DNA of 64,000 nucleotides from Treponema sp. TIM-1 (lineage in GTDB: Bacteria > Spirochaetota > Spirochaetia > Treponematales > Breznakiellaceae): positions 43,708-107,707 of the forward strand of contig NZ_JAJQRC010000002.1 of assembly GCF_046533115.1 (NCBI RefSeq). Reading direction: 5' to 3'. Made by a program: the position numbers and the translations under genes. The notes under the pieces are model-generated. The model had not been told where the DNA came from. It saw only the letters and a program-made list of their open reading frames with translations, and made no database searches. Shown piece by piece: positions 49,105-57,646 of this stretch; positions within the stretch are counted from its first letter, which is position 1; every line of letters starts with the position of its first letter.

Positions 49105-51024
49105 TTAATTTCCGGCTTGATCCGCCCGGGTAACCAGGTGCCGCTGCCATTCGATAAGGTCCCGTTCCATCCGTTTATCCGAGCCTTCCACATCCGCCAT
49201 GATTCGGAAAACCGGTTCCGTACCGGAACCCCGCATCCAGATACAGGCCGGGACATGGCCGGTTTTGGTGGAAAAAAGGATCTTTAAGCCCCCCCGGCCG
49301 GCATCGCCGAAGCGGGAAAGTCCCCGTTTTTCCTCCATTCCTACAAAGGCGGTGGCGCTCCACCCGGTGATACCGTAACGGGCGTTAAAGTAATCCTTTC
49401 GTTCCTCCCATTCCTGGAGAAAAAATTCCTGGTACCGGTTTTTGAGGAGCCCGTGATCGACGGTTTTGATCCGCAGTAACGCCTCCGGGGTATAGGAACC
49501 GGTGGTGATAAAGGGAGGGAGGGCGGCGATAATATCCGCCAGGGTAAAATCAGGATGGTATACCTCGGCTTGATCCGACAGATCACACCAGAGTTCAAAA
49601 AAGCCCTTCCGTTCCCCTTCGCTCCGGATGGTAAGGAGTTTTACCAGGGCCAACACCGTATTAATGGGATCCCGTACCGCCGAAGGATGGGTAATATTAC
49701 CCCCGGCGGATCCTTCCCCCAGGATCCGTACCAGATATCCCTGTTCCCGGAGCTTCCGGGCCAGGCCAACCACATTAGCCTCCCCCACTTCGGCCCGGAA
49801 AACCGACACGTCAAAGGCCTTGGCAATCCGATCCACCCGCATGGAGGTAGGGCCGTTCACCGCAATAGCCGCTTTTCGCAGGGCGTTTCCCTTATTATCA
49901 AACTGAAGTTCGCCGGTCCAAACCAGGTGGGCCAATTCGGAAACACAGGCCAGGGCGAAAACTTCCTGGGCTTCCAGGGCCCGGGCCCGTCCCTGGGTTT
50001 CGTCCCAGAAAACCAGATTTCCCCGGTCCCCGTCACAATCCGGCACATAGCCGATAACCACCCCGGGATTCTCCCGGTGGAGTTGCTCCACAAACTGCCG
50101 GCAGGGTTCCAGGGATTCCCCCTCGGGGACGATACGGTGGGCGATTTCCCGGGGTTTTTGAAACATTCCGTAAAAACCCAGCCCCAGGGAAGTAAGAAAT
50201 TCCCGGTCTATAGATAAGGTCCGGGCGGATCCGTTAAAATCCGCCGCCACCCCCAGGAAATGGTTCCGTAAACTTCGGGTCATAACCTCAAAAAGGGAGC
50301 TTTCCCCGGCATTTTCGGTTCCTCCGGTAAGTTCCCGGGTAAAGGAGAGATACGCCCCATAGGCTTCGGCTTTGATCTCCTGAAGGCCTAAATACACCTG
50401 GGTGAGTTCCGGAATATTCCCATACCCCACCCAGGAAACCGCCTGGGGTATAACCTGGGGATCCGCCATCCGGGCCCGGAACGCTTCAATCAGGAGCAGC
50501 GCCTCCGGTGCGGGGAGAACCCCCCCATCGGTAAGACCGAATTTAAGACCGTTATGCCCTATGGGGTTATGGCTGGCGGAGATATATACAAACCCCTGGG
50601 CTTTGCCGGTCCGGGCATAGGCCATGATCTCCGGGGCAGCGATGATAAAGGCGAACCGTACCCCGCAGCCCTGTGCCAAAAAGGTCCGGATCATCGGATC
50701 CGCTATGGCCGGTCCCGTGGGTCTTGAGTCCATTCCGACTATTACCTGGGGATGTTCCAGGCCCGTTTTTTGTTTAAGATATTCCGCAAAGATCCCGGCC
50801 GCAATACTGGCTATAACCCCATGGACCGGACTTATTTCTTCTCCGGGGCTCTCCTCATCGCCGTTTTTCGCGAAGATCCCCCGCCACCCCGATGCCGAAA
50901 GGATCATTTTATCCAGCACTTCATCCAAACGGGTCTTGGTCAAAGCCGGATCATCCCCTTTGAAGGGAAGTACCGCAGGATCGGCAATAAAAAGTCCCGA
51001 ATCAGGATGCCGTATTAACGCCAT
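49105..51024 (-). CDS. Phosphoglucomutase/phosphomannomutase family protein (long form)
   Basis: The active-site Ser motif is SASHNPIGHNGLKF, with Mg-binding DCDGDR. 639 aa. Confidence 0.85.
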   Translation of the reverse strand: MALIRHPDSGLFIADPAVLPFKGDDPALTKTRLDEVLDKMILSASGWRGIFAKNGDEESPGEEISPVHGVIASIAAGIFAEYLKQKTGLEHPQVIVGMDSRPTGPAIADPMIRTFLAQGCGVRFAFIIAAPEIMAYARTGKAQGFVYISASHNPIGHNGLKFGLTDGGVLPAPEALLLIEAFRARMADPQVIPQAVSWVGYGNIPELTQVYLGLQEIKAEAYGAYLSFTRELTGGTENAGESSLFEVMTRSLRNHFLGVAADFNGSARTLSIDREFLTSLGLGFYGMFQKPREIAHRIVPEGESLEPCRQFVEQLHRENPGVVIGYVPDCDGDRGNLVFWDETQGRARALEAQEVFALACVSELAHLVWTGELQFDNKGNALRKAAIAVNGPTSMRVDRIAKAFDVSVFRAEVGEANVVGLARKLREQGYLVRILGEGSAGGNITHPSAVRDPINTVLALVKLLTIRSEGERKGFFELWCDLSDQAEVYHPDFTLADIIAALPPFITTGSYTPEALLRIKTVDHGLLKNRYQEFFLQEWEERKDYFNARYGITGWSATAFVGMEEKRGLSRFGDAGRGGLKILFSTKTGHVPACIWMRGSGTEPVFRIMADVEGSDKRMERDLIEWQRHLVTRADQAGN

Positions 51025-51049
51025 AGGGCAAACTCCTTGTTACCAGAGG

Positions 51050-51080
51050 CGGTTTCAAAAAAATCTAATTTTTGAAACCG
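51050..51080. promoter_or_regulatory. Perfect palindrome CGGTTTCAAAAA-aatctaa-TTTTTGAAACCG, 25 nt upstream of the phosphoglucomutase start
   Basis: 12-bp perfect arms. It differs from the 43507 copy only at the innermost position and in spacer length (7 nt). Confidence 0.5.
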
Positions 51081-51178
51081 GTTCAATATAAAAACCCATA
51101 AGGGGGAAAATAGTATACTGGTTTTTGAATTCTATTGCTATAGCCAACGGCAGCTCCGGACGAGGGGGGATATATTAC

Positions 51179-51207
51179 TTGACAGGGATTTCTCCCCTGT
51201 TTATACT
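51179..51207 (+). promoter_or_regulatory. Candidate sigma70 promoter TTGACA-N17-TATACT for the aroF leader
   Basis: TTGACA at 51179-51184, a 17-nt spacer, and TATACT at 51202-51207. It lies in the divergent intergenic region between the phosphoglucomutase gene and aroF. Confidence 0.5.
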
Positions 51208-51228
51208 CCCCTATCATAAGGAAACAAG

Positions 51229-51363
51229 GTGTTTAATTCCGCGGCTTACAAGATATTCTTTATCACCGGTTGCAAGGCCGGTTTTTCTCTTTCCTCCTAT
51301 TACTATTATTATTACCGGTCTTTATGTCCCGCGGAGCCGATAGGTTTTAGGTTAAAAACCTAA
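51229..51363 (+). CDS. Candidate leader peptide (44 aa) with six consecutive Tyr codons
   Basis: AAGGA RBS at 51218-22, 6 nt, then GTG at 51229. Translation is MFNSAAYKIFFITGCKAGFSLSSYYYYYYRSLCPAEPIGFRLKT* with TAT TAC TAT TAT TAT TAC at 51298-51315. The stop codon lies inside a hairpin. It sits upstream of DAHP synthase and prephenate dehydrogenase. Confidence 0.35.
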   Translation: MFNSAAYKIFFITGCKAGFSLSSYYYYYYRSLCPAEPIGFRLKT

Positions 51364-51387
51364 AAACAGGCAAAACCTGATAATTCA

Positions 51388-51428
51388 GGGAGATCCCGGG
51401 ATAAATTAACCGGGGTCTCCCTTTTTTT
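51388..51428 (+). terminator. Intrinsic terminator/attenuator hairpin in the aroF 5' leader
   Basis: GGGAGATCCCGG-gataaattaa-CCGGGGTCTCCC is a 12-bp stem with one G.U pair. It is followed by TTTTTTT and ends about 48 nt before the aroF ATG. Confidence 0.55.
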
Positions 51429-51475
51429 ATGTCCGGCGGGATTTTAAATCCCGGAAAAACAACCAGGAGGTTATC

Positions 51476-52501
51476 ATGATTATCGCCTTAAAACCGGAAG
51501 CGGAAAAAGGGGAAGTAGAGAAATTTACGGTTTTTCTTGAACAGCAGGGGGTAACGGTCCACTATTCCCAGGGAGCATCCCGGATCGTATTGGGCCTGGT
51601 GGGGGATACCCAGGGGATCAACGCCGAAGCCCTCAGGGCTCACCATGTGGTAGAAAAGGTTATTCGGGTACAGGAGCCCTATAAGCGGGCGAATCGGCTT
51701 TTTCACCCCGAGGATACCCGGATTGAGGTACCCGGGCCGGATGGTATTATTCGGAGCATCGGCGGGGTTTCCCTGGGTATTATCGCCGGCCCCTGTTCGG
51801 TAGAAAACCGGGATCAGATCCTCCAGGTGGCCAGGGAAGTAAAAAAAGCCGGGGCGGGATTTCTCCGGGGCGGGGCTTTTAAACCCCGGACCAGTCCCTA
51901 TAGTTTTCAGGGTCTGGGATGTGAAGGGCTTGACCTGCTTCTGGAGGCAAAAAAAGAAACGGGCCTGCCCATTGTAACCGAACTTATGGGAAATCACCAG
52001 CTTGAGGTTTTTGAGGATGTGGACATCATCCAGGTGGGGGCCCGGAACATGCAGAATTTTACCCTCCTTAAAGAACTGGGGAGAAGCCGTAAGCCCATAC
52101 TCCTCAAGCGGGGTTACGCCTGTACCTTAACGGAACTCCTCATGGCTGCGGAGTACATCATGGCCGGCGGGAACGACCGGATCATCCTCTGTGAACGAGG
52201 GATCCGTACCTTCGGCAGTTTCACCCGGAATACCTTAGATCTGTCGGCAATCCCGGCCCTGAAAAAGCAAAGCCACCTTCCGGTAATCGTGGATCCCAGC
52301 CATGCCACGGGTCTTGCCTGGATGGTCCCCTCCATGGCCAAGGCCGCCCTGGCAGCGGGGGCCGACGGTGTCATCATCGAAGTCCACAACGATCCGGAAA
52401 ACGCCCTCTGCGATGGGGAACAGTCCCTCACTCCGGAAGAATTCGCCCGGCTCATGGACTCCTTAAAAAAATACGCCGCCCTGGAAGGCCGGGTCCTCTA
52501 G
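51476..52501 (+). CDS. aroF: 3-deoxy-7-phosphoheptulonate (DAHP) synthase, type I-beta with an N-terminal ferredoxin-like regulatory domain
   Basis: The KDO8PS/DAHPS I-beta core has GPCSVEN and KPRTSPYSFQGLG. An N-terminal extension of about 80 aa resembles the Thermotoga-type regulatory domain. Confidence 0.85.
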   Translation: MIIALKPEAEKGEVEKFTVFLEQQGVTVHYSQGASRIVLGLVGDTQGINAEALRAHHVVEKVIRVQEPYKRANRLFHPEDTRIEVPGPDGIIRSIGGVSLGIIAGPCSVENRDQILQVAREVKKAGAGFLRGGAFKPRTSPYSFQGLGCEGLDLLLEAKKETGLPIVTELMGNHQLEVFEDVDIIQVGARNMQNFTLLKELGRSRKPILLKRGYACTLTELLMAAEYIMAGGNDRIILCERGIRTFGSFTRNTLDLSAIPALKKQSHLPVIVDPSHATGLAWMVPSMAKAALAAGADGVIIEVHNDPENALCDGEQSLTPEEFARLMDSLKKYAALEGRVL

Positions 52502-52504
52502 CCT

Positions 52505-53374
52505 ATGAAACCAATCGAAAACAACGTGGTGGGGATCATCGGGCTGGGGCTTATGGGCGGCGCCATAGCCATGGCCTTGCGATCCGGGGGGCTTATCCCC
52601 CCGGGAGGCCGGGGACGGATCCTGGGCTGCGACATCGACGGGGATACCCTGGCGGCGGCCCGGGTGGACGGGGTTATCGACGAGGGTTTCACCTCCCCGG
52701 AACCCCTGCTGGGACGCTGCGATATGATCTTTCTCTGCCTCAACCCCGCCACCCTGCTGGAATTTATGGAAAAACAGATGAGGGCCTTCCGTCCCGGGAC
52801 CCTGATCACCGATATTGCCGGTATTAAGGGACATATTGCCGCGGCCATGGAAACCACCCTCCGGGAGGATCTGGACTTTATACCGGGACATCCCATGGCG
52901 GGGAGCGAAGGGGGAGGCTATGGGAACGCGAAAAAATGTGATTTTCACGGAAAAAATTATATCCTCACCCCCCTGAAACGGAACAAGGGCGAAAATTTGG
53001 AATACCTTAAAGCCCTGCTATACCGGATGGGTTTCGGCAGGATCACCTGTACCACGGCGGAAGAACACGACCGGAAGATCGCCTTTACCAGCCAGCTCTG
53101 TCACGTTATTGCCGCGGCCCTCATCAACTGCGAGGCTGACCGGGAGATTACCCGCTTTGGAGGGGGGAGTTTTGAGGACCTTACCCGGATAGCCATACTC
53201 AACGTTCCCCTGTGGACTGAACTCTTTTTGGAAAACCGGGATGCCCTCCTCCACCGGATCACCCAATTTGAGGAAAGTCTGGAGAAAATCAAAGGGCTTA
53301 TCGCCGAGGAACAAAAAGAGGAATTACAGGAGACCCTCAGGACCGTGCGGAACCGGCGGGCTGCTATGGGATAA
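52505..53374 (+). CDS. tyrA: Prephenate (arogenate) dehydrogenase
   Basis: Rossmann motif VGIIGLGLMGGAIAMAL, and the TyrA core with HPMAGSE. Confidence 0.8.
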   Translation: MKPIENNVVGIIGLGLMGGAIAMALRSGGLIPPGGRGRILGCDIDGDTLAAARVDGVIDEGFTSPEPLLGRCDMIFLCLNPATLLEFMEKQMRAFRPGTLITDIAGIKGHIAAAMETTLREDLDFIPGHPMAGSEGGGYGNAKKCDFHGKNYILTPLKRNKGENLEYLKALLYRMGFGRITCTTAEEHDRKIAFTSQLCHVIAAALINCEADREITRFGGGSFEDLTRIAILNVPLWTELFLENRDALLHRITQFEESLEKIKGLIAEEQKEELQETLRTVRNRRAAMG

Positions 53375-55990: not shown

Positions 55991-57646
55991 TTATAGATAC
56001 GCCCGGAACTTCCGCTCAATATCGCCAATCAGCTTGTATTCGATGGAATCCACCAGGGCGGCACGGCTGGCATCGATGATGTCCTCGGAAACCCCCAGGG
56101 TACTCCAGGTTTTCACCCCGTCGGTGGATTCGATGAGGACCCGGACCTTGGCGGCGGTGGCGGCGTTGCCGTCGATAACCCGGACCTTGTAGTCCGAAAG
56201 CCGGACCTGCTCCAACTCCGGGTAGAACCGGGTAAGGGCCCGGCGGAGGGCGCCGTCCAGGGCGTTCACCGGACCATCCCCCTCGGCGGCGGCGATCTCG
56301 TCCTTGCCCTCCACCCAAACCTTGACCCATGCGTGGGAACAGGCAATGGTCTCCCCGGTAGGGTGTTCACTGACCACCCGATAGGCGAGAATTTTGAAGA
56401 GGGACCGCCGGGACTCTTCGGAACGGCCCGTATGCCGGCTTAGTTCCCGGCGGACCAGGATCTCGAAACTGGCGTCGGCCCCCTCAAAGGCCCAGCCCTC
56501 AGCCTCCAGAGTCTTGAGCTTTTCCGCAATGGCCGCGATTACCGGGTGGTCCTTCGTAAAAGAAGGATCGATCTTTTTCGCCCGCTCGGCCACGGCGGAA
56601 CGCCCCCCCACTTCGCTCATCAAGAGGTGCCGGTTGTTCCCCACCAGGGCGGGATCGATGTGTTCAAAGGAACGGCGTACCTTGAGGACCCCGTCGGTGT
56701 GCATCCCCCCCTTATGGGAAAAGGCGCTGGACCCCACATAGGGCATGGCACCGGGGACCGGGATATTGGCAATCTCCGCCACCCGCCGGGTCGTTTCGGC
56801 GATCAGGGGCAGCTTGCCCCGGGGAAGGCAGCGAAGCCCCCATTTGAGTTCCAGGCTGGGGATGAGGGCCGCAAGGCTCGTATTGCCGCAGCGTTCTCCA
56901 AAGCCCACCAGGGTCCCCTGCACATGCCGGCACCCCCCCTTAACCGCCGCCAGGGCATTGGCTATGGCCAGCCCCATATCATTATGGGCATGAATCCCAA
57001 CGTCCACCCCCGACTTTTCATACTTTTGAAGAACCGCCCCCACTCCGGCGGTCATATCGTCGGGAAAACTGCCGCCGTTGGTATCGCAGAGAACCATGGT
57101 CTTTGCCCCGGCTTTCAAAGCGGTTTCCAGGGTGGAGAGGGCATAGCCGGGATTGGCCTTCCAGCCGTCAAAAAAATGTTCCGCATCGAAAAAAACTTTA
57201 CGGCCCTGGGCCGTAAGAAAGGCCGTGGTTTCAAAAATCATGGCAAGATTTTCCTCAAGGGATACCCGGAGTACCTCGGTTACATGGAGATCCCAGCTCT
57301 TCCCAAAGATCACCACCCCTTCGGTATTCGCCTCAAGCAAACGGCGGATTTGGGGATCATCGGCGGCTTTTATCCCCGGTTTTCGGGTTGGCCCAAAGGC
57401 GCAGAGCCGGCTATGTCCCAGACTGAGCCCCCGGACCAGGCTGAAAAATTCCGCGTCCTTGGGATTACTTCCCGGGTTCCCCGCCTCAATCCAGGCCACC
57501 CCCAGATCATCCAGGGCCCGGACTACGGCGAGTTTATCCTGTACCGAAAAGCTGATCCCTTCGCCCTGAGCCCCGTCCCTGAGGGTGGTATCGAGAATTT
57601 CAAGGTCCGTTCCCCCGGATACGCCGGTTTCTGTTTCGCTGCTCAC
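55991..57646 (-). CDS. cimA: Citramalate synthase / 2-isopropylmalate synthase family (long form with C-terminal regulatory domain)
   Basis: The N-terminus ILDTTLRDGAQGEGISFSVQDKLAVVRALDDLGVAWIEAG is the HMGL-like/LeuA start. The 551-aa length and the C-terminal LeuA-dimer domain are typical of CimA/LeuA. CimA is not distinguished from LeuA by sequence alone. Confidence 0.7.
   Translation of the reverse strand: MSSETETGVSGGTDLEILDTTLRDGAQGEGISFSVQDKLAVVRALDDLGVAWIEAGNPGSNPKDAEFFSLVRGLSLGHSRLCAFGPTRKPGIKAADDPQIRRLLEANTEGVVIFGKSWDLHVTEVLRVSLEENLAMIFETTAFLTAQGRKVFFDAEHFFDGWKANPGYALSTLETALKAGAKTMVLCDTNGGSFPDDMTAGVGAVLQKYEKSGVDVGIHAHNDMGLAIANALAAVKGGCRHVQGTLVGFGERCGNTSLAALIPSLELKWGLRCLPRGKLPLIAETTRRVAEIANIPVPGAMPYVGSSAFSHKGGMHTDGVLKVRRSFEHIDPALVGNNRHLLMSEVGGRSAVAERAKKIDPSFTKDHPVIAAIAEKLKTLEAEGWAFEGADASFEILVRRELSRHTGRSEESRRSLFKILAYRVVSEHPTGETIACSHAWVKVWVEGKDEIAAAEGDGPVNALDGALRRALTRFYPELEQVRLSDYKVRVIDGNAATAAKVRVLIESTDGVKTWSTLGVSEDIIDASRAALVDSIEYKLIGDIERKFRAYL

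Follow-up and report, generated by a model that had tools for sequence, protein, structure and literature searches.

Which signal sets the expression of aroF and tyrA in Treponema sp. TIM-1 is the question raised by a short intergenic region of this bacterium, which was analysed here within a stretch of 64,000 nucleotides (nt) of its DNA (the window; all coordinates are window positions). The two genes encode a 3-deoxy-7-phosphoheptulonate (DAHP) synthase and a prephenate dehydrogenase, respectively, and the DNA preceding them carries a promoter, a short open reading frame (ORF) with six consecutive tyrosine codons, and an intrinsic terminator. In the textbook picture, control of tyrosine biosynthesis falls to repressors (TyrR) or to T-boxes, and leader-peptide attenuation is the mode described for tryptophan, phenylalanine, histidine, threonine, leucine, and isoleucine/valine. 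The element upstream of aroF is very probably a classical ribosome-mediated leader-peptide transcription attenuator, which would couple aroF-tyrA to the supply of charged tRNA-Tyr. An architecture of this kind, keyed to tyrosine, had been proposed from the letters of the region alone (the original prediction), and it is now supported by its conservation, by its reading frame, and by the predicted pairing of an antiterminator strand (region 2) with the 5′ arm of the terminator (region 3).

The Leader ORF and Its Tyrosine Codons

All elements of the leader lie on the forward strand. A sigma-70-type promoter is found at 51179-51207, composed of TTGACA (51179-51184), a spacer of 17 nt, and TATACT (51202-51207), with 11 of 12 positions matching the consensus. 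The GTG start codon of the leader ORF follows 21 nt after the -10 box and is preceded at a distance of 6 nt by AAGGA (51218-51222), which reads as a Shine-Dalgarno sequence; a purine-rich Shine-Dalgarno sequence for the leader is kept in the relatives described below. The ORF itself (51229-51363, MFNSAAYKIFFITGCKAGFSLSSYYYYYYRSLCPAEPIGFRLKT) comprises 44 codons, starting with GTG at 51229, and a TAA stop codon at 51361-51363. Its candidate regulatory codons are a run of six tyrosine codons, TAT TAC TAT TAT TAT TAC, at 51298-51315. Six successive TAY triplets occur only once in the 64 kb when both strands are considered and in none of 100 dinucleotide shuffles; even four successive TAY triplets are expected only 0.07 times.

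The near-consensus promoter with its 17-nt spacer, the AAGGA ribosome-binding site, the GTG-initiated ORF of 44 codons, and the six-codon run had all been named in the original prediction and are present as described. A seventh tyrosine codon was likewise correctly noted, while the number of phenylalanine codons, given there as four, is five; these are scattered over the peptide. The statement that the remaining frames of the run would yield leucine and isoleucine/threonine repeats was borne out on translation, a TAY triplet shifted by one base becoming YTA.

Conservation among Treponema Relatives

Related aroF loci, designated by L-numbers, were collected by a protein scan with AroF against one genome per species (80 loci) and by a scan of metagenomes (80 further loci). 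In the former, the closest AroF proteins, with 70-78% amino acid identity, come from metagenome-assembled genomes of termite-gut and gut Treponema. The near relatives L161-L165 are members of the 90% cluster to which the AroF of the window itself belongs, and the close alignment consists of the window and these five sequences.

In the five close relatives, both promoter hexamers are invariant, and the GTG of the window is replaced by ATG, except for L164, where an in-frame ATG is found two codons upstream. Their longest uninterrupted tyrosine run comprises 3 to 7 codons (6 or 7 in four of the five; L161 reads NYYSYYY), the differences being TAT/TAC changes together with gain or loss of whole codons. 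The clustered run is purely tyrosine in the window and in these relatives, with phenylalanine codons standing singly or as one pair. Insertions and deletions amount to 3 nt inside the leader ORF and to 1-2 nt in the rest of the leader. Outside the run, the three codon positions vary equally (13, 13, and 14 of 43), which indicates that the frame and the tyrosine codons are constrained and the sequence of the peptide is not. Constraint on frame and codons combined with a freely drifting peptide is what one would expect to see in a regulatory leader peptide. Just before the run, a hairpin that runs into a U-rich stretch (P1, ACCGG/CCGGT; 51265-51282) was flagged as terminator-like; among the close relatives its stem is 96.7% paired, and the sequence of its loop varies. 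With its U-rich tail, P1 may act as a pause site for RNA polymerase, by which ribosome and polymerase would be synchronized.

The comparison was extended to the more distant lineages L001, L002, L006, L007, L012, L016/L019/L093, L083, and L088. Across 13 sequences from about nine Treponema/Spirochaetaceae lineages, a run rich in tyrosine and phenylalanine, its frame and start codon, a stop codon within a hairpin, and the terminator are all kept, while the nucleotides and the remainder of the peptide diverge. Examples of such runs are YFYYYYYY, YYSYFYYYYF, YYYYYYY, FYYYY, YYYFYF, YSYYGYFYF, YNYSFYYYYY, and VYFYYYW. Between the end of the run and the stop codon lie 27-57 nt, with 13 of 15 sequences falling within 36-45 nt. 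In each of the 13 sequences named above, the stop codon is found in or next to a hairpin with a predicted stability of -9.6 to -15.8 kcal/mol, and a strong hairpin with a U-tract, different in sequence in every lineage, begins 21-29 nt past the stop codon. Conservation of the tyrosine-run ORF and of the terminator had been proposed as a check of the original prediction, and loss of the run with retention of the hairpins as the pattern that would speak against it. What is seen in these lineages is the opposite of that pattern, run and frame being kept as the nucleotides diverge. Tyrosine had also been singled out as the relevant frame, and it alone is opened by a start codon in every one of the 13 sequences; the leucine frame lacks one in 11 and the isoleucine/threonine frame in 9. 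The leucine and isoleucine/threonine readings of the run were ruled out on these grounds, there being no start codon in most lineages.

Of 15 related sequences, 11 have a promoter of the form TTGACN-17/18-TANNNT shortly before the leader ORF begins. In L006, L007, L012, and L088, the in-frame ATG of the leader lies 6-7 nt past the TANNNT -10 box, which leaves no room for a Shine-Dalgarno sequence and suggests that the leader peptide of these four would be translated from a leaderless mRNA.

Neither leader nor terminator was found at four Treponema/Spirochaetia loci (L003, L004, L005, and L009), where aroF directly follows another ORF; these loci do have the aroF-tyrA pair, and the attenuator is therefore not universal in the clade. 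The closest AroF outside the 90% cluster (76% identity) is encoded at L081 (Ga0268262_10001220). No tyrosine-run ORF is present in the region before its gene (about 1390-1500) despite a TTGACA promoter and a GC-rich hairpin with U8 right before aroF, and a CGGAG-like segment remains; this locus could be a degenerate or a differently controlled variant.

A run of TAY triplets is low-complexity DNA, and one may ask whether it is simply a (TAT)n-like repeat without any regulatory role, with a leaky or vestigial terminator next to it by chance. Besides the nature of the run, L081 with its promoter and terminator and without a leader ORF would be in line with this explanation. Set against it are the absence of the run from all 100 shuffles, the recurrence of the whole architecture in about nine diverged lineages, the conserved complementarity between regions 2 and 3, and the accumulation of aromatic-rich small ORFs upstream of aroF homologues in other bacteria (both below). 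The absence of any regulation is accordingly the least probable of all explanations considered and can practically be dismissed.

Terminator, Antiterminator, and Stop-Codon Hairpin

The intrinsic terminator (regions 3 and 4; 51387-51428) is formed by a GC-rich stem of 13 base pairs (bp), in which 51387-51399 pairs with 51410-51422 around a 10-nt loop, and by a U7 tract encoded at 51422-51428. The stem is 92% complementary, its predicted stability is -24.7 kcal/mol, and its equilibrium probability is 0.91. The terminator ends 47 nt before the ATG of aroF (51476). In the close relatives it is 96% paired, with one pair altered on both sides. A second hairpin (51345-51365; 9 perfect bp, 51345-51353 with 51357-51365) holds the stop codon of the leader and is situated inside the predicted antiterminator loop. 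Between the two, at 51367-51389, the segments CAGG (51367-51370), CCTG (51376-51379), and CAGG (51386-51389) make up two mutually exclusive mini-hairpins, as CCUG can pair either with the first CAGG or with the second one, at the base of the terminator stem. A mini-hairpin of the form CCTG-N(4-6)-CAGGGAG recurs in the window group and in L001, L002, and L007, which are otherwise diverged; the CCTG/CAGG alternatives of the window have the appearance of a second small switch.

A further hairpin, the inverted repeat CGGGATTT/AAATCCCG at 51437-51453, lies between the terminator and the ribosome-binding site of aroF and repeats part of the terminator 5′ arm (ATCCCGG). As the segment carrying it is deleted in L163 and L165, this hairpin probably stands outside the conserved device and is not essential. 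All three hairpins had been recognized in the original prediction, with differences in detail: the GC-rich stem with its U7 tract is present, extending over 13 bp from 51387 and ending 47 nt before aroF instead of 12 bp, 51388, and 48 nt; the stop codon does lie in a hairpin, which measures 9 bp at 51345-51365 instead of 10 bp at 51344-51366; and the additional hairpin before the ribosome-binding site exists, although it is absent from two relatives.

Because whole-leader equilibrium folds favour the terminator in practically every state, the partners available to its 5′ arm were examined for the stage before the 3′ arm exists. The predicted 5′ strand of the antiterminator is region 2 (GTCCCGCGGAGCC, 51326-51338), which starts 11 nt past the run and hence beyond a ribosome stalled on the last tyrosine codon; its duplex with the terminator 5′ arm GGGAGATCCCGGGAT has a calculated stability of -15.5 kcal/mol. 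In 13 of 13 sequences, a segment starting 7-20 nt past the run, and thereby clear of a ribosome stalled within it, complements the terminator 5′ arm better than shuffles do (z = -0.7 to -4.6, mean -2.5, each sequence being compared with its own shuffles). When 12 post-run segments were aligned with MAFFT and folded with RNAalifold without any structural input, the sole consensus helix was CGGAG:CUCCG, that is, the helix of regions 2 and 3, with compensatory double changes in three of its five pairs. This helix, which excludes the terminator by way of its 5′ arm, is the predicted antiterminator. A search for alternative antiterminator pairing by RNA folding had been recommended with the original prediction, and the 2:3 helix with its compensatory changes is its outcome.

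The effect of the ribosome was modelled by folding only the RNA downstream of it, with pairs across the ribosome disallowed. These folds replaced an earlier version, in which a shortened leader was allowed to pair across the bound ribosome and which gave no information for the window group. With the ribosome on the last codon of the run, the 5′ arm is unpaired with a probability of 0.01-0.39, rising to 0.51 in L012 when the ribosome is on the first codon of the run. With the ribosome at the stop codon, the corresponding values are 0.38-0.97. In about half of the lineages the ribosome at the stop codon covers region 2 directly.

A possible partner of region 2 is located near the beginning of the leader. 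Region 1 (TCCGCGG, 51238-51244) forms a perfect 7-nt inverted repeat with CCGCGGA at 51329-51335 and is proposed to act as an anti-antiterminator (1:2). The two regions are 100% paired in the window and its five close relatives, with one change from G-C to G-U, and an equivalent of region 1 is found at codons 2-7 in most lineages.

Proposed Attenuation Mechanism

Transcription would start about 7 nt past the -10 box, and a ribosome would load on the 44-codon leader ORF. If charged tRNA-Tyr is scarce, the ribosome would stall in the tyrosine run (51298-51315), with its leading edge just short of region 2 (51326-51338). Region 2, being free, would capture the terminator 5′ arm as it emerges, and the resulting 2:3 helix would enclose the stop-codon hairpin, while the CCUG/CAGG mini-hairpin would tie up the base of the terminator 5′ arm. 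With the terminator blocked, RNA polymerase would read through into aroF-tyrA. If charged tRNA-Tyr is plentiful, the ribosome would proceed to the TAA at 51361, melt the stop-codon hairpin, and take up a position between regions 2 and 3 or, in several lineages, directly on region 2. Formation of the 2:3 helix being prevented, the 13-bp terminator with its U7 tract would form, and transcription would end at about 51428. In the absence of translation, region 1 would pair with region 2, which would likewise favour termination.

Several observations weigh against this scheme or against parts of it. Whole-leader equilibrium folds keep the terminator at 0.83-1.0 whatever the position of the ribosome, the exception being L001, where it dips to 0.52-0.71 at two tyrosine codons. 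The switch would consequently have to be a kinetic one; a kinetic rather than an equilibrium choice is usual for attenuators. In the window group, about 6 nt separate region 2 from a ribosome positioned at the stop codon, so that blocking of the 2:3 helix would be a steric matter, with the ribosome occupying the loop, and not a direct masking. The pairing of regions 1 and 2 is statistically weak, with z values from +0.5 to -3.3 across lineages, and region 1 precedes the tyrosine run by about 54 nt instead of lying under the stalled ribosome, unlike the situation in trpL. Furthermore, the helices are near-invariant in the six close relatives (96.5% and 91.3% paired), and their covariation is no better than that of shuffles, the variation being too small for this comparison to count for or against the pairing. 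Finally, codon content is no proof of specificity: the F-Y-F leader of Corynebacterium glutamicum answers to phenylalanine and not to tyrosine, and five phenylalanine codons are present in the leader of the window.

Relation to Catalogued RNA Families

An Rfam scan of the whole 64-kb window gave no family at gathering score, including the leader families for phenylalanine, histidine, tryptophan, threonine, and leucine as well as the T-box (RF00230). A permissive scan of 51000-51600 returned hits at chance level only. The best of these, which was rejected, was a His_leader match on the minus strand (51384-51482; score 26.7 bits with E = 0.031, the threshold being 49), on the strand opposite to the genes; this sub-threshold match is explained by the near-palindromic nature of the terminator with its A/T tract. 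Twenty related loci scanned in the same way contained no family upstream of aroF, and a regular expression for the T-box consensus found none upstream of aroF at 78 loci, the other two of the 80 having too little upstream DNA. One genuine T-box (139 bits) was encountered at L022 (2224-2426, minus strand), upstream of a divergent gene beside a Clostridium aroF; it is unrelated to the control of aroF. In its sequence-level features the Treponema element is of the pheL/trpL class, and it is a member of no catalogued sequence family.

These results bear on the explanation that the terminator is controlled by a factor acting in trans, the ORF being incidental. Such a factor could be a TRAP- or HutP-like protein that binds the UAY repeats or, by the T-box principle, an uncharged tRNA. 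Successive UAY triplets could in principle form an array for protein binding, and the tyrosine genes of Firmicutes are classically regulated by T-boxes (PMC1262725). Yet no T-box or other Rfam family was matched in the window or upstream of aroF in the 20 related loci, nor did the regular expression retrieve one. A conserved start codon, insertions and deletions that preserve the frame, and a stop codon placed in a hairpin would not be expected of an incidental ORF, and the runs of other lineages, although interrupted by F, S, G, or N codons, remain in frame. Control by such a factor is very improbable.

aroF Leaders in Clostridia and Other Firmicutes

For a wider survey, an aromatic-rich small ORF was defined as one in which at least five of eight residues are Y, F, or W, within 300 nt upstream of an aroF homologue. 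Such ORFs were found in 47 of 78 species, mostly Clostridia, whereas the reverse complement gave 4 and shuffles gave 1. Cases in which the ORF is followed by a terminator are L011, L013, L015, L017, L018, L020, L021, L023, L027, L029, L037, L047, L049, L094, L103, and many others. Many of the clostridial leaders share a core that is conserved at the nucleotide level, TGG GGC T.. T.. TTT AGC GCT GGY TAT (FWGFYFSAGY). In these leaders, AATGAG near the stop codon complements CTCATT in the terminator 5′ arm, which follows the same logic as the 2:3 pairing of Treponema. Within the 20 related loci scanned, no Rfam family matches the clostridial aroF leaders.

The longer peptide-like motif kept in clostridial relatives, FWGFYFSAGYFFC, leads to the question whether the poly-tyrosine nascent peptide itself might arrest the ribosome, possibly with free tyrosine being recognized in the exit tunnel, much as tryptophan is by TnaC, so that the signal would not be charged tRNA. 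The folding logic requires only a stall in the run and places no constraint on its cause, which is compatible with this explanation and gives it no direct support. In the clostridial motif, however, it is the nucleotides that are conserved (always AGC GCT), which points to a constraint on the RNA more than on the peptide. In Treponema, the peptide outside the run is not conserved across lineages, and the codon positions vary equally (13, 13, 14). Moreover, if free tyrosine caused the stall, an abundance of this amino acid would induce the operon, the reverse of what a biosynthetic operon calls for. Arrest by the nascent peptide is thus highly unlikely as the basis of the control.

The composition of the leaders varies with that of the operon. 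Over 67 distinct leaders, tyrosine accounts for a share of 0.60 of the aromatic residues beside an aroF-tyrA pair (n = 45) and of 0.37 where no tyrA is adjacent (n = 22; Mann-Whitney p = 9e-5, phylogeny being ignored); leaders without an adjacent tyrA more often contain tryptophan. This contrast fits a matching of leader content to operon content. It is also relevant to the possibility that the same attenuator reports general aromatic supply (tyrosine and phenylalanine) or overall translation capacity instead of tyrosine in particular. The leader of the window has five phenylalanine codons beside its seven tyrosine codons, related leaders mix Y and F and sometimes W, the product of aroF serves all three aromatic amino acids, and the aroR leader of C. 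glutamicum responds to phenylalanine and not to tyrosine, though it carries a tyrosine codon. On the other hand, the clustered run of the window and its close relatives is purely tyrosine, phenylalanine being scattered singly or as one pair; the second gene of the operon, tyrA, is specific for tyrosine; and leaders beside tyrA are significantly richer in this residue. A general aromatic or translational signal is unlikely, while still being the best placed of the rival explanations. From codon content and gene context, a specificity of the attenuator for tyrosine over phenylalanine would be expected.

Outside Treponema, the AroF proteins nearest to that of Treponema are those of Acetobacterium and Clostridia, with about 60-63% identity. 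Joint movement of gene and leader between Firmicutes and gut Treponema is a possibility.

Genomic Context of the Element

Three proteins encoded around the element, WP_411042456, WP_411042457, and LeuRS, are identical to those of Treponema sp. TIM-1. WP_411042456 is the 3-deoxy-7-phosphoheptulonate synthase of the aroF type (51476-52501, forward strand), in which the domain DAHP_synth_1 is combined with the N-terminal ferredoxin-like domain DAHP_snth_FXD (Pfam, NCBIfam; NF006421 at 473 bits); its ribosome-binding site is AGGAGG at 51465-51470. WP_411042457 is the prephenate dehydrogenase TyrA, whose gene (52505-53374, forward strand) is the second and last of the operon and encodes the domains PDH_N and PDH_C (Pfam, NCBIfam). 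The identities of both genes given in the original prediction are thereby upheld. Since leuS converges on tyrA, the regulated unit would be aroF-tyrA alone. The upstream neighbour, a phosphohexomutase-like gene (49105-51024), is on the minus strand, which makes 51025-51475 a divergent promoter region. Within this region the terminator is flanked by the promoter on one side and by the genes served by that promoter on the other, which rules out that it marks the 3′ end of a different gene. No second attenuator was found upstream of a gene resembling citramalate/isopropylmalate synthase (55991-57646, minus strand), which directly follows a long ORF.

Comparison with Known Systems and Significance

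With the pheL-pheA system of Escherichia coli, and equally with trpL and hisL, the Treponema element shares a promoter-proximal short ORF containing codons for the end product, a terminator 5′ arm that can alternatively be paired with an upstream segment, and a decision that would depend on the position of the ribosome. It differs from them in being keyed to tyrosine, in its spirochaete host, and in resembling none of the Rfam leader families, either in sequence or by covariance model. Its regulatory codons are placed in the loop that separates region 1 from region 2 and not within region 1, and the stop codon of its leader lies in a hairpin of its own inside the antiterminator loop.

Closer in gene content is aroR-aroF of C. 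glutamicum (Neshat et al. 2014), for which, according to the passages of PMC4046766 and PMC11802643 that deal with it, attenuation by an F-Y-F leader has experimental support and responds to phenylalanine, not to tyrosine. Both systems place an aromatic-residue leader peptide upstream of a DAHP synthase gene and would use ribosome-mediated attenuation; compared by description only, the Treponema element is set apart by its six-tyrosine run, by the coupling to tyrA, and by the phylum of its host. The motif uORFC-13-1, known from Acholeplasma and environmental sequences only, is a predicted upstream ORF with promoter and ribosome-binding site right before a terminator, and it is found only upstream of aroF; its U-run codes for phenylalanine (Brewer et al. 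2021, PMC8632094). The likeness, again judged from the description only, consists in a predicted upstream ORF immediately before a terminator at aroF. That motif, however, is keyed to phenylalanine, and nothing in Rfam matched the window.

For aroF-tyrA of E. coli, an attenuator sensing tRNA-Tyr was hypothesized by Camakaris, Camakaris and Pittard in 1980, as cited in PMC8632094 and PMC2659441, and the 5′ untranslated region of this operon is said to differ from the upstream-ORF motif of Acholeplasma (PMC8632094). The same gene pair and the same proposed signal are encountered in Treponema; while the proposal of 1980 was a physiological hypothesis, the Treponema leader has an explicit tyrosine run. 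A comparative study of 2005 lists attenuators for histidine, threonine, and phenylalanine, and T-boxes for tyrosine (PMC1262725). The tyrosine T-boxes of Firmicutes resemble the Treponema element in providing tyrosine-dependent antitermination upstream of aromatic genes, but they sense uncharged tRNA directly and without an ORF, and no T-box match was obtained here. A literature search retrieved no paper that connects Treponema with leader peptides and transcription attenuation, and none on leader peptides with tyrosine codons. The element had been put forward as undescribed in spirochaetes, which agrees with this search; as an idea it is not wholly new, attenuation of aroF being known in C. 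glutamicum, predicted in Acholeplasma, and hypothesized in 1980. The mechanism itself is not new, and the conceptual gain is modest.

There is about an even chance that the element of the window is the tyrosine-specialized spirochaete branch of a large uncatalogued family of aromatic leader peptides. This family would accompany the genes of DAHP synthases with a ferredoxin-like domain in Clostridia, other Firmicutes, and termite- or gut-associated Treponema, with its Y, F, and W content tuned to the operon and with some leaderless members. The element would then also be the first clear sequence-level example of the tRNA-Tyr proposal made for aroF-tyrA in 1980.

An attenuator built on a tyrosine run would fill a gap among the amino acids credited with leader-peptide attenuation, would extend ribosome-mediated attenuation to the spirochaetes, and would offer a directly testable case of the idea raised for aroF-tyrA in 1980. 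Its recognition would improve the annotation of termite-gut and gut Treponema genomes. Beyond these, the wider survey suggests that an uncatalogued attenuator family is located upstream of aroF in many Clostridia, which would be a useful addition to Rfam and to annotation pipelines.

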